A stretch of DNA of 53,791 nucleotides from Escherichia phage mEp010. Below are positions 2,846 to 44,191 of this stretch, one piece after another. How positions within the stretch are numbered: the first letter of the stretch is position 1; each line of letters opens with the position of its first letter. The notes under the pieces were generated by a model, which saw only the letters and a list, made by a program, of their open reading frames with translations, was not told where the DNA came from and made no database searches. The stretch lies in sequence record PP180001; one strand, given 5' to 3'. The translations under genes and the position numbers were made by a program.

Positions 2846-3039
2846 AATACACCGTTGCTATTTTTCCATTGTGCCCGTGCGTACATAATCGCCTGCAAAG
2901 AAATTAGCCGCGAGCTTGTCATGAAAGCGCCTTTTAAATATTTCATGTCAACCGTGACAGGTTTATCAGGATCATCGCCGCGCATGTATTCCGCAATTGT
3001 GCTTAAGTCTTCCACGGTCAAATCTAATTCCCTATTCAT
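2842..3039 (-). CDS. Hypothetical protein (65 aa)
   Basis: Track ORF, 4-nt overlap with ninB start; operon packing. Confidence 0.5.
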   Translation of the reverse strand: MNRELDLTVEDLSTIAEYMRGDDPDKPVTVDMKYLKGAFMTSSRLISLQAIMYARAQWKNSNGVL

Positions 3040-3048
3040 GGTCGCCCC

Positions 3049-3255
3049 TTACACAATACGCATTGTGTTTCGTAATTCACCGCGCAACGCCTGCAAAGCG
3101 TAACGAATAGGCACAAAAGCCCGGTTAAATTTTACGTGCCTGTACTTGCGCATTAGTGGAGGCGTATAAACCATCGCGCCGCAAGAATTGCATGGAAATT
3201 TAAAGTGTGATTCGTCAATGAATGTTTCAACTGAATAAAAAATTACCCGTCTCAT
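3049..3255 (-). CDS. Hypothetical protein (68 aa, Cys-containing)
   Basis: Track ORF; start overlaps stop of upstream gene. Confidence 0.5.
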   Translation of the reverse strand: MRRVIFYSVETFIDESHFKFPCNSCGAMVYTPPLMRKYRHVKFNRAFVPIRYALQALRGELRNTMRIV

Positions 3256-3845
3256 AATTCCAACCCCGTTTCACCGTTAAGTTTTTCGATCTCAAATACT
3301 GGCTTATCAGGCAGAAGGCCGTTGTTTTTCCGGTATTCGCTCAGGCGACTATCAAAGTCAAACGCCAGATCATTAGCGTGACCGAATCGCCCAGGTTTAA
3401 ACAGCGAGTAAAAGTTAACCCCGTGCCTATTTGGATCAACGCAAAGCGTTTCATCAATCACCATTAAACGCAGAGTACGAGAAAGATAATTCCACGGTAT
3501 TCCCGTTTCAGCGCTAATGTCGCGCATACGCTTTTTAACGCTGTAGCCACCAAATAACGACGCGACACGCTCACGACGTTCAGCATATAACTGTTTAATA
3601 CGATAACCCAGCAGACGGCGGCGGCGTCCAAAACATGTATACACGCGCTCGACGATACCGTTTTTTATTAAGTGTTTAATTGTCTCAGGCAGTAACCCGT
3701 CTTTGTCATATCCAGCCAATAACCCCGTTTTATTGCGTAACTGGTGCATTGTTGCGATGCCATCAAGTTCAAGGATATTGATAACTTTTGTTTCAAGTTC
3801 AGCGCTCATTGCTTTTAGCCTCATTAAAAACGCGATAACAGCCAC
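3252..3845 (-). CDS. Hypothetical protein (197 aa) downstream of helicase
   Basis: Track ORF in leftward replication operon; no motif recognised. Confidence 0.55.
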   Translation of the reverse strand: MAVIAFLMRLKAMSAELETKVINILELDGIATMHQLRNKTGLLAGYDKDGLLPETIKHLIKNGIVERVYTCFGRRRRLLGYRIKQLYAERRERVASLFGGYSVKKRMRDISAETGIPWNYLSRTLRLMVIDETLCVDPNRHGVNFYSLFKPGRFGHANDLAFDFDSRLSEYRKNNGLLPDKPVFEIEKLNGETGLEL

Positions 3846-3888: not shown

Positions 3889-5304
3889 TTAAAAAGATGT
3901 GTTATTCTGATTGTTTCGTTGGTTAAAACGGCTTGTGCGATGATTCATTGACTGAATACACGCTGCGGCTGCGCGCGCCTGGTCGCATGGCAAGATATTA
4001 CCGTTGTCATCAAACCGCTGGTAAACAGTTCCAGACTTACCATGACGGTTTTTTGACACAATGATTTCCATGTATTCGCGGGCAACAGACTGCTCGTCGT
4101 AATACCCATCGCGGTAAACCATGATTATTCTGTCGGCATCTTGCTCAAGGTTGCCGGAATCACGCAGATCAGAATTATTAGGGCGCTTGTTTGGTCGTTC
4201 CTCAACTCGTCGTGATAATTGCGCTAGCGCTAACACTGGAACGCGCAATTCTTTTGCCATCATCTTCAACGACCATGACAATTGCCCAACGGCGAGATCA
4301 TGACGTTCTGCCTTAGCCAGCTTCATCAACCCTATGTAGTCAATCATTACCATACCCAGGTTGGGATGTTCCTGTTTCATCCGTTCCGTGGTGGCGCGTA
4401 TTTCCTCAACCGTTAACTGCGACGCGTCAACGATCCACACATCAAGATTAGCAAGTGCGCTCATACCCTGTCCGACATGCGCCCAACCCTCATCATCAAG
4501 TTTTACCGGATTGCGCAGGCAGTCAGTTGATAAATTACCAGCGCCAGCAATGGCCCGCTCAGTCATCTGATCGAGTGACATTTCAAGCGTGAAGAGCAAA
4601 ACGCCAACCCGCTGTTCTTTACTGCCAGGGTAAGGGCGTTCAGCGGCTGCGCGGGCAATTGCCAGCGCCAACGCAGATTTACCAGACCCAGGGCGTCCGG
4701 CGAGAAGTACCAAATCAGTAGCGTTAATGCCGCCCAACATTTCGTCGAGTGGTTCTATACCTGTTTTGATGTTGTCAGAATTGACACCGCATTCCATGCG
4801 CTTGCTTAAAACATCCGTATATTCCTGTACCGCATCGCGCAACAGAACCGGAATGATCTTATCTTTCGTTACCTTTAATTTTGAATACCGGGAATCAAAA
4901 TCTTTCATCGTCTCTTTGACGACCTCAAGCGTCCCCGTTTCCAGTTTGTAGCGCATATCGTCGATGAGTTCCAACATCTGCCGCCGCTGGTGCTCTTCAC
5001 GTAGTAGCTGTGCGTATCCCTTCAGGTTGGCAGCAGACGGGCACGATCGCGCCGTTTGCATTAGCGGTACGAAATTTTCATTACCAATCTCATCACCTAC
5101 CAGCAATGCATCGATGAGGTTCCTGTTTCTTGCTTGCGCCCGGATAATTTCAAAAGCCCGCTTATACAGCGGAATAGTGAACACTTCAGGATCAAGCGTA
5201 GCGAGAACATCTTGCGCGTTAGGAGTAAGGCCGCCCAACAGCAGCCCACCGATAACTGACGCCTCACGTTCCTGCCGTAGTGAGTTTATTTGCTCAGTTA
5301 CCAT
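3889..5304 (-). CDS. Replicative DNA helicase, DnaB family
   Basis: 471 aa; Walker A GRPGSGKSALALAIA, Walker B VMIDYIGLM, DnaB N-terminal domain. Confidence 0.9.
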   Translation of the reverse strand: MVTEQINSLRQEREASVIGGLLLGGLTPNAQDVLATLDPEVFTIPLYKRAFEIIRAQARNRNLIDALLVGDEIGNENFVPLMQTARSCPSAANLKGYAQLLREEHQRRQMLELIDDMRYKLETGTLEVVKETMKDFDSRYSKLKVTKDKIIPVLLRDAVQEYTDVLSKRMECGVNSDNIKTGIEPLDEMLGGINATDLVLLAGRPGSGKSALALAIARAAAERPYPGSKEQRVGVLLFTLEMSLDQMTERAIAGAGNLSTDCLRNPVKLDDEGWAHVGQGMSALANLDVWIVDASQLTVEEIRATTERMKQEHPNLGMVMIDYIGLMKLAKAERHDLAVGQLSWSLKMMAKELRVPVLALAQLSRRVEERPNKRPNNSDLRDSGNLEQDADRIIMVYRDGYYDEQSVAREYMEIIVSKNRHGKSGTVYQRFDDNGNILPCDQARAAAACIQSMNHRTSRFNQRNNQNNTSF

Positions 5305-5894
5305 TATGTCATTACCTCATGTTTACAAAATGTATTTTCGATTGGTAAAGAAATGCCGTGATTACTATGAAAGTTATATATTCTTTCTGCTTCTTTTCTT
5401 GCTTTCACGGCATCATCAAACGAATCACCGTAATAAACGTATATTGTTTTCTTTTTACCATCAGATCCCCTTATACCTATTTGCGCCCGCCATTTATGGG
5501 TTTTCTTGTTCCATGTAACGCCAACGCACCCACTAGTGTTATTTGATGGCATTATTTTATTTCTGTTATTTTCCTGCCTTGTTACCATTCTTAAATTTTC
5601 GATCCTATCGTCACCAGGGATATGGTTTATGTGGTCTATTTCCATTCCATCAGGAATAGGGCCGTTAAACATTTCCCAAATAATGCGGTGACGCCATGTA
5701 CAACAGATACCATTAACGCAGATAGTCCAATAGCCGCGATGATGCTTACTTCCAGCCACGCTACCTGCTTTTATTTTGTTATTTGCGCGGTTACAAGACC
5801 AATATAGAACGCCGTTCTTATAGGTAAATAAATCATCCCACATCATGACATCCCACCATTTCAGGTCTATATACAAAGCGACCAATTTCGCCAT
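5304..5894 (-). CDS. HNH homing endonuclease (HNH plus AP2-like domain)
   Basis: 196 aa; DHINHIPGDDRIENL...NNRNK HNH motif, GYW..CVNG and SGCVGVTWNKKTHKWRAQI AP2-like repeats; wedged between replication genes, overlapping both neighbours. Confidence 0.8.
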   Translation of the reverse strand: MAKLVALYIDLKWWDVMMWDDLFTYKNGVLYWSCNRANNKIKAGSVAGSKHHRGYWTICVNGICCTWRHRIIWEMFNGPIPDGMEIDHINHIPGDDRIENLRMVTRQENNRNKIMPSNNTSGCVGVTWNKKTHKWRAQIGIRGSDGKKKTIYVYYGDSFDDAVKARKEAERIYNFHSNHGISLPIENTFCKHEVMT

Positions 5895-6963
5895 AATCAG
5901 GACTGTAAATTATAACCGCCGCGCAACGTTGCGATCGCCAGCCTCCATTAGTTGAATAAGCGTCTTTTCCCGCTAACGTGCCGTGGTGTTCAACTATGCC
6001 TATAGATGATTCTATTACTGATTTATGGTGCAAATGTCCGACATGGACGTAAACATATTTCGACTTGCCAAAGTCTTCCCGCCAGTCAGACACACAAGCA
6101 GACAATAAATTTTCAGGTTTTTTGATTGTGTGTCCGTGGTGGTAAGCAAGGAATGTTTTGCCGTACTGTGTGTGGTGGACGATGGCAGGGGACACATCAA
6201 CCGTCACGCGCGGTTCATCTTCGTAAAAAGCCGCCAGCGCCGCACGTAGCCAGATCATTCCTGACTGGTCGTGATTGCCTGATAACACTTGGATCTCGAC
6301 GTCTTTGTGGTTTAACAACATCTTTCCAACAGCCCGCCGGACCGAACGGATCGCCACATAAACAAGTTTTGCGTAGCGTGAATCGCAATCAAGTACGTGA
6401 TTGCTTGATGGCGTAACTGGCAACAGTCCGTCAGTGTGAAGAACATCCCCGCCGAGAAGCAATACGGCTTTTTCAGACATCGGAGCAGCGCCTACAGCGT
6501 AGTCAAAGAAGTCATTCAATACGCGCTCAGCGATCCCAGTGTCGTAGCTCTCGCCGCATTCAGCTTTGTGGGCAAGTGCCCCGATATGCAAATCAAATAC
6601 CGGATAAAGGGCCAGGCTTTTTTGAAAATCAATTTCAGGCACTGGCACTGCCTCCGCGCGTGGTATTTCTTCCGTGAATGCGTCGCGGGCAGCTTCCATT
6701 AGCCTTTCCATTTCATCGCGGTCACGGGCTGTTTTAATCCAGCGCATGACCGTATTCCCAGCCTTATCGACAAGAACAGATTCACCAGTAACGCCAAAAC
6801 CCGGCGCGCGGCGCGTTGATAATAAACCGCGTTTCGCCAGCTTTGCGCCCAGCCGCTCGACGTTGCGTTTTGACATGCCATATTTTTCAGCGATCTGTTT
6901 ATACGTCAGACCGTTGTTATATTCAGCGATCAATTGCTCATCGCTGATTTTTCTTTGCGACAT
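5833..6963 (-). CDS. N-terminal HTH fused to calcineurin-like metallophosphoesterase
   Basis: 376 aa; HTH (LTYKQIAEKYGMSKRNVERL) then phosphoesterase motifs DLHIG, GGDVLHTDG, GNHD, GHLHH. Confidence 0.65.
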   Translation of the reverse strand: MSQRKISDEQLIAEYNNGLTYKQIAEKYGMSKRNVERLGAKLAKRGLLSTRRAPGFGVTGESVLVDKAGNTVMRWIKTARDRDEMERLMEAARDAFTEEIPRAEAVPVPEIDFQKSLALYPVFDLHIGALAHKAECGESYDTGIAERVLNDFFDYAVGAAPMSEKAVLLLGGDVLHTDGLLPVTPSSNHVLDCDSRYAKLVYVAIRSVRRAVGKMLLNHKDVEIQVLSGNHDQSGMIWLRAALAAFYEDEPRVTVDVSPAIVHHTQYGKTFLAYHHGHTIKKPENLLSACVSDWREDFGKSKYVYVHVGHLHHKSVIESSIGIVEHHGTLAGKDAYSTNGGWRSQRCAAVIIYSPDYGEIGRFVYRPEMVGCHDVG

Positions 6964-7124
6964 AATGTTAATTCCTCCGGTTTACAGAATGTATATTTAT
7001 TTTCCGTAAAACGCGCTACAACGCAAAAATCCACCGCGTAACCCACTTGTAAGGGTGCAGTGTCTTTTTTGCGCCAGAAGCGCAATCAGGTGGCTAATTT
7101 TTGATTTACAGACTGGTAGGTAGG

Positions 7125-7226
7125 TTATGGATTGACAAGAAGGAACAAACCGCCGAACAAAACCACGTTAACAGCGATTGCAGCGGCGATGGCAAAAGCC
7201 AGGGCGAAAACGTGTTTACCGTCCAT
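7125..7226 (-). CDS. Possible 33-aa hydrophobic micropeptide (MDGKHVFALAFAIAAAIAVNVVLFGGLFLLVNP)
   Basis: Small ORF with AGAGG-type SD in the 400-bp gap between replication genes; speculative. Confidence 0.2.
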   Translation of the reverse strand: MDGKHVFALAFAIAAAIAVNVVLFGGLFLLVNP

Positions 7227-7360
7227 TTTCGAAATCCTCTCTGTAACGCTCTATAACGAGCTAATCGCAAAAAGGTAAGCAAGTGTAGCACCACATGCGA
7301 TTTATCTCGCTGGCGAGCTTGTTTTGCGGGTTATTTTGGGTTTTTGTGGATCGTGGTTGG

Positions 7361-8368
7361 TCAAAGAGCGCCACATCGTGTATCACGTAGCGTTTTTGGT
7401 TTAAGCAGGAAATCAAGTGTCGCTATGAAGCCATTGCCGAAGTAAAAATCTGAAGCCGTGTTTTTGAACGTTTCAAAGTAGGCGACAAAGCCGTTGATGC
7501 TTTTGTCTTTCAGGTAGTCAGTGAACGCATAAATCTTGCGTTCAAGATCCCGATCCAGTTCGGCAGGTGGCAACAGGCCATCAAACGTGCTGTTAAATGC
7601 CTCCACTACGTCGGCAGCGTTTGCAGTGGCTGACAGTTTGCGCCATTTTTCAGCATCAGCCAGATACCCATCAAATTTAGTTACCCGGCAAATGTTTATA
7701 GGCTTAGGTGTTCCACCACGGCTACGCCATTGTGTTAAAGCCCACTCAATCACTAACGTGATCTCACCCTCCGTATACGCTTTACGTGTTTTTGTTTCTG
7801 TCAGTAGTTCTACGAATGGCTTAGCATCACGACATTTGCATCCTGCCTTGTCGTTGTAGAAGGCCAGGCAACGCAATGCCGCCAGGTTAACCTCCCGATC
7901 TTCTTCGCTGATAGACCGGTCTTTTTCCAATACACGGAGTGTATTGTTTTTAATGTTCTCTTTACTGGTTATATATGACTGGTTAGGGTGACTCTGTGAC
8001 ACTACCCCCGGTGACTCTGTGTCACTACCCCGGTGACTCTGTGTCACTACCCCCGGTGTCACTGTGACACTACCATGCAATGACGGAAGGACTATTACAT
8101 AGAAATTACTAGTTTGCTCTTTTCCTCCGATTAAATATCTTGGTTGTTTAATCAACAACCCTTTTTCACAAAGTGAGTCTACAGCCCTCATAGCTGTTCT
8201 TTTGCTGATCTCACACTCCTTTGCTATGTGATGGTAAGAAGGATAACACTCTCCGTTATCATTAGCGTTATCAGCTAACTTCAACAGCACCAGTTTGTGC
8301 ATTGGGTCGCCGACCTCAGTATGGAAGACCTCTACCATTAGCCGCATACTCATAAGCATTAACCTCAT
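7361..8368 (-). CDS. Replication initiator (O-like; winged-HTH N-domain, origin iterons inside gene)
   Basis: 335 aa; iteron array embedded in the coding sequence as in lambda O; adjacent to helicase. Confidence 0.7.
   Translation of the reverse strand: MRLMLMSMRLMVEVFHTEVGDPMHKLVLLKLADNANDNGECYPSYHHIAKECEISKRTAMRAVDSLCEKGLLIKQPRYLIGGKEQTSNFYVIVLPSLHGSVTVTPGVVTQSHRGSDTESPGVVSQSHPNQSYITSKENIKNNTLRVLEKDRSISEEDREVNLAALRCLAFYNDKAGCKCRDAKPFVELLTETKTRKAYTEGEITLVIEWALTQWRSRGGTPKPINICRVTKFDGYLADAEKWRKLSATANAADVVEAFNSTFDGLLPPAELDRDLERKIYAFTDYLKDKSINGFVAYFETFKNTASDFYFGNGFIATLDFLLKPKTLRDTRCGAL
7986..8074. repeat. Origin iterons: four tandem ~22-bp repeats (GGTGACTCTGTGTCACTACCCC), each with a GTGAC-N5-GTCAC palindrome, flanked by an AT-rich stretch (7940-7985)
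   Basis: Seen directly; encodes the GVVTQSH-repeat linker of the initiator. Confidence 0.75.
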
Positions 8369-8727: not shown

Positions 8728-8761
8728 TCGCTTCGCAGCGACACCAGATTTTTAAAGAGCT
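8728..8761 (-). promoter_or_regulatory. nutR-like site (boxA AGCTCTTTA plus boxB-like hairpin) on the leftward transcript
   Basis: Minus strand reads GCTCTTTAAAAATCTGGT then hairpin TCGC-TGCGAA-GCGA; same 15-mer as the nutL-like site. Confidence 0.5.
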
Positions 8762-9601: not shown

Positions 9602-9695
9602 GTCTGAAAAAACACCAAAACGTAAACAGAAAACGCTATTTATTGTTTAAATATCAATAGCATATAAAATATTTTAAAAAAGTATACAAAATGGA

Positions 9696-9724
9696 TTGAC
9701 TTGGTGTTTTACGGGGCGTATATT
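9696..9724 (+). promoter_or_regulatory. Rightward early promoter (PL-equivalent): TTGACT-17 bp-TATATT
   Basis: Near-consensus sigma-70 hexamers with 17-bp spacer; recurrent motif GTATACAAAATGG abuts the -35. Confidence 0.65.
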
Positions 9725-9978
9725 GCGAATCAAAGGAAGGGCGTAGGTAACAAAAGCAGCTTCCTGGCACTTTAAAAATCAGGCTTAACACCTTGTCAAC
9801 CGTGGAGTAACTCCCCAATGGGGGACCGAAAGCGGCACTGATAACAAGGCGCATGGGGTGTTTAAAGCGTTACATCCCCCACGAAACCGCACGCAGGGCG
9901 ACGAGTCAGCTTGCTTGGAGTGAGCAAGGTCACGCCGGGAACGGCGATGATTGCGGGATTAGTTGAAAGATGTTAAGC

Positions 9979-10016
9979 CGCTCATTAAAAATCTGGTCAG
10001 CCGCTGGAAGTGCGGC
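9979..10016 (+). promoter_or_regulatory. nutL-like site (boxA CGCTCATTA plus boxB-like hairpin GCCGC-TGGAAGT-GCGGC)
   Basis: 58 nt upstream of the N-like gene; shares GCTC(A/T)TTAAAAATCTGGT with the nutR-like site. Confidence 0.55.
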
Positions 10017-10073: not shown

Positions 10074-10364
10074 ATGAGCGTTACAATTATGTATGGAAAA
10101 TGTGATAGCAAAATGAACGCCAGGGAACGCAGAAGGATAAAAAGAGAAAACGAAAGAAAATCATCACCTGCAATTAATAAAACAGACAATGTGGATAAAG
10201 CTATTCGATTTGCAAACGAGGAAAGGTGCAAACCAAATAGCATTAAAGAACGTCGCAAAGGTTCAGTAAAATGGTATACGGAAAATGAAAGCGGCAACTA
10301 CTACCACGCAACGCAACCACGCCATTTAGGGGAGAAACCCCTGGATAAAGTCCGTTACCATTAA
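10074..10364 (+). CDS. N: N-like antitermination protein (arginine-rich motif)
   Basis: 96 aa; N-terminus MSVTIMYGK..NARERRRIKRENERK parallels P22 gp24 / lambda N ARM; first gene after the nutL-like site. Confidence 0.7.
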   Translation: MSVTIMYGKCDSKMNARERRRIKRENERKSSPAINKTDNVDKAIRFANEERCKPNSIKERRKGSVKWYTENESGNYYHATQPRHLGEKPLDKVRYH

Positions 10365-10513
10365 TACAAAATGTAAACATTCGGAGGTTACATTATGGTT
10401 ATCGAGGCGCTTCAATTCAAACTGGCAGTAGCGGAAATGCTTCATGATGCCGAAATGTGGAGCGCCGCGAATAAAGCCTTATACATAGTGTTAACAGCGA
10501 AGGAGATTAAAGA

Positions 10514-16077: not shown

Positions 16078-16561
16078 CAGGTTATTAGCCTGCGTTTATG
16101 TCGCCGTTTTCGTGATCATCAACCTTATTGTTAACCATTGCGGCCCGTGGGTAATTCCGATCACCACGGTAGCCGCTGTGTGTGTCAATATGATGATCCG
16201 TGACTTCTTGTTATATGACGGCGGCCTAAAATGGTCGGCTACAACATGCGCCGCCGCTGGCGCAATCACGGTGCTGATAAATTACGACGCCGGAATGGTA
16301 GCGATCGCGTCATTCGTTGCGGTTGTTTCCGGTGCGCTTATTTCTGGCGGCGTTTACCGGGTTTTACCTGGTGACTTTGATTCGAAACGCTGGCCTGCAA
16401 ATATAGCGTCCGCCATTGGCGATGCGTTAATTTTTCCTACGCTATCGTTTATGGCATTTATGCCTGAAATATCAGCTATGCAATTCATCTCAAAAATGGC
16501 AGCGGTAACGGTGATCACTATCATCATGCGCCGCTATTTCACGTTTGAAGGCAGAAAATGA
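16049..16561 (+). CDS. Multi-pass inner-membrane protein, possibly VUT/YhhQ-like (queuosine-precursor transporter family)
   Basis: About five predicted TM helices; loose resemblance only; ATGA-coupled to the cytosine methyltransferase gene. Confidence 0.35.
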   Translation: MTQMKKVAIDRLLACVYVAVFVIINLIVNHCGPWVIPITTVAAVCVNMMIRDFLLYDGGLKWSATTCAAAGAITVLINYDAGMVAIASFVAVVSGALISGGVYRVLPGDFDSKRWPANIASAIGDALIFPTLSFMAFMPEISAMQFISKMAAVTVITIIMRRYFTFEGRK

Positions 16562-17340
16562 GCAAGGCTAAACACTGGTTTAATAATTGGCTTAGAAGTT
16601 GGGTGGTATGGTCGCTGTACGACGGCAGCGGGTACGCAGTTAAAGATTGGGCGGAAGCTGGATATAAGTGCTATTGCTTCAACTATGACGGCGCAAATCA
16701 CGGCGATTATGAAGGCGTTAAAATCATTCATCCAAACATTGAATACGTTAACGTATGGATTGACAGCCATTTCCTGGTAATGTTCTCCCCTGAATTGTCT
16801 GTTTATCCAGAGCCTGACATTATCTTGGGCTTCCCTCCATGCGACGATCTCGCTGTGTCTGGCGCTCGCTGGTTCGCTGATAAACGGAAAAAAGATCCTG
16901 ACTTCCAGGTGAAGGCGGCGAATAGCGCAAAACTGGTAGAAAAACTGGCGGATATGCACAACGTGCCGTGGATGGTGGAAAATCCGGTGGGAGCACTGTC
17001 AACGCTATGGCGCAAACCTGATTTTATCTTCAACCCGTGCGCTTACGGTGGCTACCTGCCTGAAGATGACAAACATCCTGCTTTCCCTGATGTTTACCCG
17101 CCGCGAGACGCGTACACGAAGAAAACTTGTATTTGGTGCGGCAACGGACTTAAACAGCCGCTTTTTAGACCTGTAGATCTTAACTCTGGTGATAACCCTG
17201 GGTGGGCGAAAACCGGAGGCAGGACGAAACGAACAAAGATGATCCGCTCACTAACGCCGCGTGGCTTTGCCCGTGCTGTATTCCTGGCTAACGACCGGGC
17301 CATCAATCGTACTACGCTCAACCGCGTTTTACCGGACTGA
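16558..17340 (+). CDS. DNA cytosine-5 methyltransferase (short form)
   Basis: Motif I-like LYDGSG, PC motif GFPPCDDLAVSG, ENV motif MVENPVGAL. Confidence 0.65.
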   Translation: MSKAKHWFNNWLRSWVVWSLYDGSGYAVKDWAEAGYKCYCFNYDGANHGDYEGVKIIHPNIEYVNVWIDSHFLVMFSPELSVYPEPDIILGFPPCDDLAVSGARWFADKRKKDPDFQVKAANSAKLVEKLADMHNVPWMVENPVGALSTLWRKPDFIFNPCAYGGYLPEDDKHPAFPDVYPPRDAYTKKTCIWCGNGLKQPLFRPVDLNSGDNPGWAKTGGRTKRTKMIRSLTPRGFARAVFLANDRAINRTTLNRVLPD

Positions 17341-17499
17341 AGTTTACAAAATGGCGTCATTGCGTGATGTGGATCACATAATGGCGCTTTTCACCTTGTT
17401 CTGGTGTATCCATTTTGTATACTTCAAACAAGCAAAATGCTCTTTAAAAATCCGGCAGCGCTGAAATGCGTAGAAATCACCTGAAAAGGAGAGAGCATT

Positions 17500-17676
17500 A
17501 TGCCTTTTGATAATTACCAATGGCATGACGACTATGAACGAGAAAGCGTCATGCGTGCAATGTGCAATGTATGCAGCACGAAGAAAGGAGACTGCAACGA
17601 GTGCAACGAATGTTTAGATCATTGGCTAAGGGCCGGACACGCCGAAAGGCTGAACGAAACAGAGAATCAAAAATAA
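17500..17676 (+). CDS. Small Cys-rich protein (58 aa; CNVC..CNECNEC)
   Basis: AAGGAG SD 7 nt upstream; below ORF-track cut-off; immediately upstream of ninG. Confidence 0.4.
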   Translation: MPFDNYQWHDDYERESVMRAMCNVCSTKKGDCNECNECLDHWLRAGHAERLNETENQK

Positions 17677-22891: not shown

Positions 22892-23110
22892 ATGACTATT
22901 TTAACGTGTCACGGATCTGATCTTGATTGTTTCGAAGACGGTTGCCAGTACGAAGCGGAAAAACCAGGCGGATTACCGAAAAACCCGTTTTTAGTAGTTA
23001 CAGACACTTACGGTCACTTATGGTATGCAGCGCCCAGCAAGGCGCGCGGCTGGTGGCTGATTCAGAATGACGATCGCGAGGTTGTAGTGGCCTTTAAGCA
23101 GGATGAATGA
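22892..23110 (+). CDS. Hypothetical protein (72 aa, Cys-containing)
   Basis: Met62 of track ORF 22709-23110, starting 1 nt after previous stop. Confidence 0.45.
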   Translation: MTILTCHGSDLDCFEDGCQYEAEKPGGLPKNPFLVVTDTYGHLWYAAPSKARGWWLIQNDDREVVVAFKQDE

Positions 23111-44063: not shown

Positions 44064-44191
44064 ATCACACCTCCGCGCCATTTTGTTAACCCTGCTTCCT
44101 TTTGAGTACAATATACATATTGTAAAAAACGCGATCAACCGTTTTGGTATGATTTGGCGTGACAGCGATCACAAAATGACAAGGTGAAAAA

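Follow-up and report, generated by a model that had tools for sequence, protein, structure and literature searches.

An HNH endonuclease gene between the phosphoesterase and helicase genes of Escherichia phage mEp010, and the recurrent leader motif beside it

The HNH gene and its insertion site

Escherichia phage mEp010 (sequence record PP180001; 53,791 nt, analysed over its full length and called the window below) is a temperate coliphage of the mEp021 group (mEpimmI), with 88-93% identity to mEp021 / mEpimmI phages, a recently described group of gut-prevalent temperate coliphages (PMC11893012). A gene for an HNH endonuclease lies within its replication operon, and a short leader sequence recurs before the genes on either side of it; the origin of both is considered here. 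All genes from 3.8 to 8.7 kb are carried by the minus strand, the operon running from an O-like initiator through a phosphoesterase (PE) gene and the HNH open reading frame (ORF) to a DnaB-type helicase gene (Table 1). A RefSeq homologue of PE is named "metallophosphoesterase family protein" and five metallophosphoesterase motifs are seen in the PE translation, with no Pfam match for this protein.

The HNH protein matches HNH_3 with 77 bits, against a Pfam cut-off of 24.8 bits, and belongs to phrog_99, labelled "HNH endonuclease"; its HNH motif (EIDHINH...ENLR...ENNRN) is intact. One homologue carries the annotation "AP2 domain protein". No solved structure was matched by sequence, and there is no second HNH copy within the window. 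The ORF contains an ATGATG pair, of which the first ATG is missing in the IMG/VR locus L011; because that locus lacks the first ATG, three bases upstream, the second one (5843) is taken as the conserved start. The overlap with PE, up to its stop codon (5833-5835), amounts to 62 nt for the longest ORF and to 11 nt from the conserved start, while base 5304 is shared with the helicase gene, so that the overlap with both neighbours stated in an earlier note on this DNA is confirmed. A likely Shine-Dalgarno sequence (SD) precedes the conserved start (Table 1), and its equivalents in the other HNH+ alleles are GGTGGGG, GGTTGGG or GGTGGAG. The gene does not lie in an intron or intein: it follows the PE stop region with its own SD, and both PE and helicase are uninterrupted.

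Table 1. Coordinates of the genes, junctions and leader copies in the window
Feature	Position	Strand	Description
O-like initiator gene	7361..8368	-	HTH_36 (Pfam)
Upstream leader (U) of PE	6964..6994	-	ATACATTCTGTAAAC, CGGAGG SD, AATTAACATT, ATG at 6963
PE gene, 376 aa (HNH+ allele)	5833..6963	-	N-terminal helix-turn-helix + metallophosphoesterase / "DNA repair exonuclease"; PHROG phrog_704, E 1e-141
Divergent PE 3' tract	5860..6064	-	putative co-converted or imported haplotype, from fixed differences and identities
Insertion point, CCTGAA	5860..5865	-	last bases common with HNH-less alleles; the ancestral PE stop lies four codons further on
Inserted segment, 522 bp (521 bp in mEp021)	5338..5859	-	brings new PE C-terminal codons (MVGCHDVG-stop), HNH SD and HNH gene
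Likely HNH SD, GGTGGGA	5851..5857	-	7 nt before ATG 5843, inside the last PE codons
HNH ORF	5304..5894 (longest); 5304..5843 (from conserved start, 179 aa)	-	Pfam HNH_3, E 7.8e-22; phrog_99, E 4e-60
11-nt substitution	5333..5343	-	AATCGAAAATA in place of CTGAATTTTC (10 nt in relatives), against mEp021, mEp515, L010 and L011
Downstream leader (D) of helicase	5305..5335	-	ATACATTTTGTAAAC, ATGAGG SD, TAATGACATA, ATG at 5304; inside the HNH read-through tail
DnaB-type replicative helicase gene, 1,416 nt	3889..5304	-	Pfam DnaB_C, E 1.5e-75; ATG overlaps HNH stop (TAATG)
Third leader copy	10364..10394	+	ATACAAAATGTAAAC + CGGAGG + TTACATT; follows an N-like gp17 homologue and precedes a 40-aa ORF that starts at 10395; conserved in mEp021 and mEp044
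Fourth leader copy	10481..10513	+	ATACATAGTGTTAAC + AAGGAG; before the GTG start (10514) of an Erf-type recombinase gene

The earlier note had advised a comparison with relatives lacking the HNH gene, and this comparison defined the insertion site, directly after CCTGAA. The HNH gene was found in nine genomes or contigs: the window, mEp021, mEp515, the IMG/VR viral contigs L010 and L011, and four Logan contigs. It is missing from the phages mEp044, mEp554, mEp013 and MagusPhagus, which were aligned together with the Escherichia coli prophages of N1286, LP-26 and LSU61 as seven HNH-less relatives. It is likewise missing from all of 5,426 complete E. coli genomes, including the 32 related prophages found there, whose PE homologues are 74-80% identical to the window over the last 200 nt; all 31 of the prophage alignments listed stop at 5860 (query position 216), the A of CCTGAA. 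The presence of the gene is hence polymorphic at one fixed site among close relatives. The distance from PE start to helicase start is 1659 nt in the window and 1658 nt in mEp021, as against 1137 nt in HNH-less genomes, in which PE has 372 aa, the helicase gene starts 18 nt later, and the PE stop codon TAA sits within the GTAAAC of the downstream leader copy.

With a slash marking the junction, the HNH-less allele reads ...CGCTTTGTTTATTACCCTGAA/TTTTCCATTTTGTAAAC-NN-GAGGTAATNACATA-ATG (mEp044, mEp554, mEp013, MagusPhagus and the three prophages), or in a shorter form ...TTTGTTTATTACCCTGAA/TTTTCCATTTTGTAAACNNGAGGTAATNACATAATG. The HNH+ allele reads ...TTTGTATATAGGCCTGAA/ATGGTGGGG...HNH...CACGGTATTTCTTTACCCTGAA/TTTTCCATTTTGTAAAC... 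in mEp021, mEp515, L010 and L011; the Logan contigs L204 and L205 are also HNH+. Correspondingly, PE ends with ...FVYRPEMVGCHDVG-stop (376 aa) in HNH+ genomes and with ...FVYYPEFSIL-stop in HNH-less ones. A metagenome scan for further HNH+ junctions with the 17-mer CACGGYATTTCTTTACC returned 120 chance matches and no real one, this pattern being too short.

In mEp021-type alleles, the insert is flanked by a short direct repeat, CCTGAA, possibly reaching about 15 nt of the PE 3' end. HNH homologues end at ...NHG(xx)-stop, and the sequence that comes after HNH in mEp021-type genomes, TTTCTTTACCCTGAA, resembles the recipient PE end TTTGTTTATTACCCTGAA over 10 nt without a gap, or at 14 of 15 positions with a 3-nt gap. 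Most simply, TTTCTTTACCCTGAA would be a remnant of the recipient PE end left by an illegitimate right-hand join. The flanking repeat is reminiscent of a transposon target-site duplication, but its left copy belongs to a diverged, apparently imported PE 3' end and is not a staggered-cut copy; moreover, unlike transposable elements, the HNH insert has neither a transposase nor terminal inverted repeats. This repeat is distinct from the 15-bp element on which the earlier note relied, and its right-hand copy, intact in mEp021-type alleles, is destroyed in the window.

A bounded tract linked to the HNH gene

To compare the two types of allele, seven HNH+ and seven HNH- genomes were aligned over 2.6 kb, fixed differences being the columns without any base common to both groups. 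All 24 fixed differences fell at 5872-6060, within the 190 nt directly upstream of the insert; none was seen in the remaining 2.3 kb, which comprise ~900 nt of PE and the helicase gene (1,416 nt). In the PE 3' tract (5860-6064), mean identity was 96.9% within HNH+ genomes and 87.5% within HNH- genomes, and it dropped to 73.6% between the groups. The corresponding values were 91.6, 88.5 and 89.0% for the PE 5' part, and 93.6, 89.6 and 90.6% for the helicase gene. Outside the tract, the backgrounds are mosaic and independent of HNH state. This is illustrated by parts of the PE 5' and helicase 3' regions of the window, which show 98-100% identity to the HNH-less mEp044 as against 81-90% to the HNH+ mEp515 or mEp021. 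One HNH-less allele, that of the LSU61 prophage of E. coli O157:H7 (L009), encodes an intermediate PE protein (...HTGHLHHQSVVETSLGIVEHH...), with GHLHH and IVEHH as in HNH+ alleles and the end YYPEYSIL-stop; it may hint at an older exchange in the tract.

Sporadic presence, a single fixed site and a sharply bounded linked tract are together what a homing endonuclease acting with co-conversion would be expected to leave. The proposal of the earlier note that an HNH homing endonuclease is wedged between replication genes is thus in agreement with the comparative data, and we consider it likely that the window carries a mobile free-standing HNH homing endonuclease beside a pre-existing, generic leader unrelated to its insertion. 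According to this reading, a free-standing HNH(-AP2) gene would have entered PE four codons ahead of its end, arriving together with a foreign PE 3' end of about 200 nt that supplied the PEMVG...-type C-terminus and the HNH ribosome-binding site (RBS). During co-infection or a phage-prophage encounter, the enzyme would cut or nick HNH-less PE alleles near the insertion site, and repair from the HNH+ genome would copy the gene along with the tract beside it, by co-conversion. The original join on the helicase side would have been illegitimate, leaving the last 6-15 nt of the recipient PE (…TTTACCCTGAA) after HNH. Both the cleavage specificity and the homing by co-conversion are predictions from sequence comparison.

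This is in line with known systems. T4 MobE is an example of a free-standing phage HNH homing endonuclease (PMC2790892); a class with an N-terminal HNH and an AP2 domain at the C-terminus is discussed as IPA-HNH homing endonuclease genes (HEGs), and phage homing-endonuclease genes have been reported next to essential or replisome genes (PMC10448857). The position of the window gene agrees with such a placement and, as with T4 MobE and the HNH + AP2 class, a small intron-less gene stands between essential replication genes, sporadically at one site and with a bounded linked tract. In contrast to these, the window gene overlaps the 3' end of its putative target and supplies its last codons, and in the window sublineage it reads through the RBS of the next gene. 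The words "HNH" and "homing" do not occur in the paper describing the group (PMC11893012). What is new is a free-standing HNH homing endonuclease, of a known kind, at a new defined site in mEpimmI phages; where it is inserted, how the empty allele reads and which tract is inherited with it are now defined. The cultured HNH+ (mEp021, mEp515) and HNH- (mEp044, mEp554, mEp013) phages constitute a pair for testing homing between temperate phages and prophages.

Several points weigh against this reading. The AP2 match of the HNH protein (E 9.6e-5, 23 bits) is under the Pfam gathering threshold of 33.3 bits. Synonymous divergence (dS) between HNH sublineages is ~0.39, as against ~0.32 for PE and helicase; since it is as large as in the flanks, the element is old in this gene pool. 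No donor of the PE tract was found, the best DNA matches outside the mEp021 group being 67-69% identical. The HNH gene could have spread by ordinary homologous recombination alone, and the conservation of the helicase leader in HNH-less genomes could stem in part from PE coding (…EFSIL-stop). Finally, it is from diversity and parsimony, and not from a rooted tree, that the direction of the event is deduced (a gain of HNH and tract, or an ancestral HNH+ allele that was replaced).

The converse history, in which the mEpimmI group had the HNH gene from the start and most members have since lost it or had it replaced by an HNH-less PE 3' end, appears very improbable. The flanking CCTGAA repeats could mediate a precise deletion, but a simple deletion cannot yield 24 linked substitutions. 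The dS between HNH sublineages matches that of the background and the PE-HNH pairing is old, being found in other phage families, but the tracts of HNH- genomes are far more diverse than those of HNH+ genomes, the latter are a minority (9 genomes against at least 36), and a remnant of an HNH-less-type PE end (TTTACCCTGAA) lies downstream of HNH.

Another explanation is that the HNH protein no longer homes and is kept for a role useful to the phage, such as attack on competing phages or prophages, replication or recombination, the tract being a mere hitch-hiker. A ratio of nonsynonymous to synonymous divergence (dN/dS) of ~0.08 between sublineages does indicate strong purifying selection, the gene has persisted for long in the gene pool, and it is placed in the replication module with apparent translational coupling to PE and also, in the sublineage of the window, to the helicase. 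However, it is dispensable in most relatives, its family is represented in T1-like phages by hundreds of copies scattered sporadically over many sites, and a linked tract with sharp limits on the side of the target gene is what homing classically leaves, so that we regard a non-homing role as improbable.

In T1-like phages, this HNH family is very large, with tblastn matches in 3,378 phage records. Outside the mEp021 group, the closest homologue, with 65% protein identity, is gp17 of phage ACG-M12 (vB_EcoS_ACG-M12, Drexlerviridae), encoded directly downstream of a "DNA repair exonuclease" gene whose product is 55% identical to PE and ends ...GRFICRPKMFG-stop. In five IMG/VR contigs (L052-L054, L059 and L060), the PE homologue likewise ends at most ~15 nt from the HNH start; the PE proteins of these contigs and of ACG-M12 end with PEM(I/F)G, and in L054 and L059 the homologue ends ...SPEMIGGIN-stop with the stop overlapping the HNH start, as in the window. 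The order of exonuclease then HNH is hence that of the window, and the C-termini (RPKMFG-stop or PEMIGG...) resemble the RPEMVG... of its HNH+ allele. Since such an ending is normal for the exonuclease family, it was not invented by the insert. ACG-M12 differs from the window in belonging to a virulent T1-like family and in having a polynucleotide kinase as the downstream gene, and its exonuclease tract, only 67-69% identical in DNA, excludes it as the direct donor. In two other contigs (L034 and L035), HNH lies immediately upstream of a PE homologue that ends ...YPEMIA-stop, which indicates that the exonuclease gene attracts this HNH family at either end; in these contigs (3001-3490), the PE homologue is 64% identical, and the last HNH codons (CACGGAGTTTAA) supply its SD. 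The mEpimmI pool may have received the PE 3' end and HNH together, as a single unit, from an unsampled lineage.

On either side of the HNH gene of ACG-M12 (L209) stands AATAGCAC(A/T)TTTTG and then a GC-rich hairpin (2431-2500 and 2996-3070). This is a duplicated intergenic element around an HNH gene of the same family, the kind of duplication that the earlier note had proposed, in another phage.

The leader before PE, helicase and early genes

The pattern ATACATTYTGTAAAC has two exact matches in the window, ATACATTTTGTAAAC at 5321-5335 (-) and ATACATTCTGTAAAC at 6980-6994 (-). Each copy is followed by NNGAGG and, 16 nt past the element, by an ATG, that of the helicase (5304-5302) or of PE (6963-6961), and the two leaders are alike along their full 34 nt (27 of 34 positions identical). 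Two exact 15-mer copies in 53.8 kb are far beyond chance. The earlier description of a 15-bp element followed by an SD and ATG at two sites, one intergenic before PE and one in the HNH 3' end, at the same 16-nt spacing, was accordingly found to be exact. From the identical spacing, and from the location of one copy inside the HNH 3' end, that note had suggested that a translation-initiation cassette was duplicated with the insertion.

This suggestion is almost certainly wrong. All seven HNH-less relatives compared have both leader copies, with an unchanged spacing of 16 nt, and hence the insertion did not create them. The PE leader is kept in 13 of 13 relatives irrespective of the upstream gene, and the core of the helicase leader, CATTTTGTAAAC-NN-GAGG...ACATAATG, occurs in all relatives, HNH-less included. 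Besides, 1.1 kb separates the upstream copy, beyond the PE gene, from the insertion point, so that the insert (5338-5859) is not flanked by the repeats, and on the other strand two more copies, the third and the fourth, stand before unrelated genes. The element therefore appears to be a generic motif unrelated to insertion, and a repeat beside a mobile gene may be a pre-existing regulatory sequence rather than an insertion footprint, which calls for caution in similar cases.

The exact identity of the two 15-mers has a separate history. In four other HNH+ genomes, the downstream copy starts with TTCCATT and not ATACATT: the relatives read TTTACC(C/A)TGAAT(T/A)TTCCATTTTGTAAAC and the window TTTACCAATCGAAAATACATTTTGTAAAC. 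The 11-nt substitution responsible for this is located wholly upstream of the conserved core CATTTTGTAAAC and creates the ATACA half of the downstream motif. It also removes the TGA stop of HNH, as a consequence of which the ORF runs through the helicase SD to TAATG and the protein is lengthened from 167 to 179 aa, ending ...ISLPIENTFCKHEVMT-stop, while homologues all stop aligning at residues 164-168. An exact-protein look-up showed that four other assemblies encode the same protein of 179 or 180 aa; the variant is thus a real sublineage and not a sequencing error. Two of these assemblies, the Logan contigs L204 and L205, have the junction of the window but the upstream leader variant GTATACATTTTGTTAAC, so that the exact 15-mer identity in the window is a coincidence of the alleles combined, again contrary to a duplication. 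The window-specific junction CGAAAATACATTTTGTAAAC had no match in IMG/VR. In this sublineage, ribosomes translating HNH would terminate on the helicase start, and the two genes may be translationally coupled.

Two sources of the 11-nt substitution were considered and set aside. Gene conversion between the copies could draw on GAAAATA, present upstream of both, but would need indels, and the Logan upstream variant differs; for a small inversion, the ends do not fit.

Extended to ATACANNNNGTWAAC, the leader pattern has four exact matches in the window, at 5321(-), 6980(-), 10364(+) and 10481(+), for an expected number of ~0.05 by our own arithmetic; with one mismatch allowed, 6 were found for a shuffled mean of 1.87. 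Each of the four sites lies on the coding strand, with a start codon 16-21 nt further on and an SD in the interval, and the consensus leader, of which the 15-bp element is the 5' half, spans ~35 nt: ATACA-N4-GTWAAC, 2-5 nt, GGAGG, ~8 nt including ACAT, and the start codon. The accessory gene mEp044_11 has a further copy in front of it, and in the E. coli LP-26 prophage the zinc-ribbon gene is followed by an orphan half-copy. Among relatives, at least five unrelated upstream contexts adjoin the PE leader, homology starting at the motif, the flanks of which (TATACA and GTWAAC) are conserved while the centre is TTTT, AAAA or TTC and co-varies with the upstream module.

Most likely, the leader is an A/U-rich translation-initiation leader. 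A promoter inside it is not supported: a consensus scan gave 11 sites, against 11.8 in shuffled sequence, with none at the PE or helicase copies. The leader of T7 gene 10 is an A/U-rich translational enhancer upstream of its SD. In an alignment (T7 22919-22975), T7 gene 10 AATAATTTTGTTTAAC...GGAG...ATACATATG and the window TATACATTTTGTTAAC..GGAGG..TAACATTATG have only ATTTTGT(T)TAAC and ACAT-ATG in common, and both leaders are unstructured, A/U-rich and directly 5' of a strong SD. As differences, the window leader lacks the T7 epsilon element TTAACTTTA as such, and the spacing to the SD is shorter in the window. The absence of structure is illustrated by folding energies: each of the four leaders is less stably folded than its shuffled controls, with z from +0.5 to +1.3.

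Alternatively, the ATACA-N4-GTWAAC leader could be a specific cis-regulatory site (an operator at which a regulator of phage or host origin, binding RNA or DNA, would coordinate the early genes) or a dedicated recombination linker, either of which would be compatible with the history proposed for the HNH gene. Such a site would account for flanks that stay conserved while the centre flips, for the location of all four copies before early genes, for the copies and the orphan half-copy at accessory-gene joints, and for the related sequences that adjoin both early promoters. The mEpimmI paper reports a virion protein weakly similar to RB69 RegA (PMC11893012). Nevertheless, Pfam scans of ten early/middle ORFs gave no RegA-like or RNA-binding match and no candidate regulator, and a RegA-like translational repressor is not supported. 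An SD-loop hairpin pairing UGUAAA with UUAACA was likewise discarded: no compensatory change was seen, and 71.7% of cells were paired for a shuffled mean of 71.8%, so that no RNA structure is conserved. In addition, there are only four copies per genome, and the likeness to generic A/U-rich enhancer leaders suggests a non-specific role; a specific site is thus rather unlikely.

The translation-leader reading leaves room for a side effect in recombination. Boundary (linker) sequences at the mosaic joints of lambdoid phages are summarised in PMC3029335. Like them, the ~35-nt leader is kept at gene starts with unrelated sequence just upstream, and its copies, plus the one orphan half-copy, bound interchangeable accessory genes; unlike them, it has an obvious translational role (SD and start), which alone could explain its conservation. 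The variants of its 5' half (TTTT, AAAA or TTC), which co-vary with the upstream module, suggest that the leader may also serve, as a side effect, as a short homology for module exchange. This makes it a small testable example of translation signals coinciding with mosaic recombination points, albeit a modest curiosity. Two further readings, which we advance jointly and only as a tentative possibility, go beyond this. The leader may be a plug-in adaptor, an operator or enhancer doubling as homology, with which swapped accessory and homing genes always land before a ready-made RBS; and PE-HNH may be a travelling pair, the HNH lineage being a specialist on the 3' end of one exonuclease family that moves between virulent T1-like and temperate mEp021-like phages with a piece of its target.

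Sequences around the leader copies

The interval between the O-like gene and PE (6995-7360) is a variable accessory slot among relatives, and in every case compared the PE leader motif is its downstream edge (spans L001 4697-6184, L002 4173-5527, L007 2139-2858 and L008 1792-2715). In the window, MagusPhagus and the LSU61 prophage, the slot contains only a 33-aa, strongly hydrophobic ORF (MDGKHVFALAFAIAAAIAVNVVLFGGLFLLVNP; 7125-7226 (-) in the window), the product of which is probably a small membrane protein; a coding sequence of the same size, 102 nt, is annotated at the same place in mEp044, mEp554, mEp013, mEp515, MagusPhagus and Logan contigs. In other relatives, a zinc-ribbon protein, Rha/ANT-type regulators or a DNA-binding protein are encoded there as well.

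A boxA-like sequence, GCTCTTTAAAAATCTGG, was noted in three copies, at 8743-8760 (-), 9767-9783 (+) and 9980-9997 (+), one leftward and two rightward of the repressor gene; they are probably the nut sites described for the group (PMC11893012). Sequences reminiscent of the leader motif were also observed elsewhere. The intergenic gap 17340-17562 is associated with a 31-nt imperfect inverted repeat (77%; 17324-17354 / 17410-17440) bearing CCATTTTGTAAAC and CCATTTTGTATAC, the left arm of which overlaps the end of ORF 16558..17340. At 9680-9696, on the opposite strand, the 17-mer ATCCATTTTGTATACTT is found again, immediately upstream of the -35 of a TTGACT-17-TATATT promoter, and the leftward early promoter TTGACC-16-TAAACT (8864-8837) contains CATTATGTAAAC. 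These may be regulator-binding sites related to the leader motif. Lastly, at ~44150-44170 (-), TGTGATCGCTGTCACG resembles the CRP consensus TGTGA-N6-TCACA and adjoins variants of the CATTTTGT-type motif.

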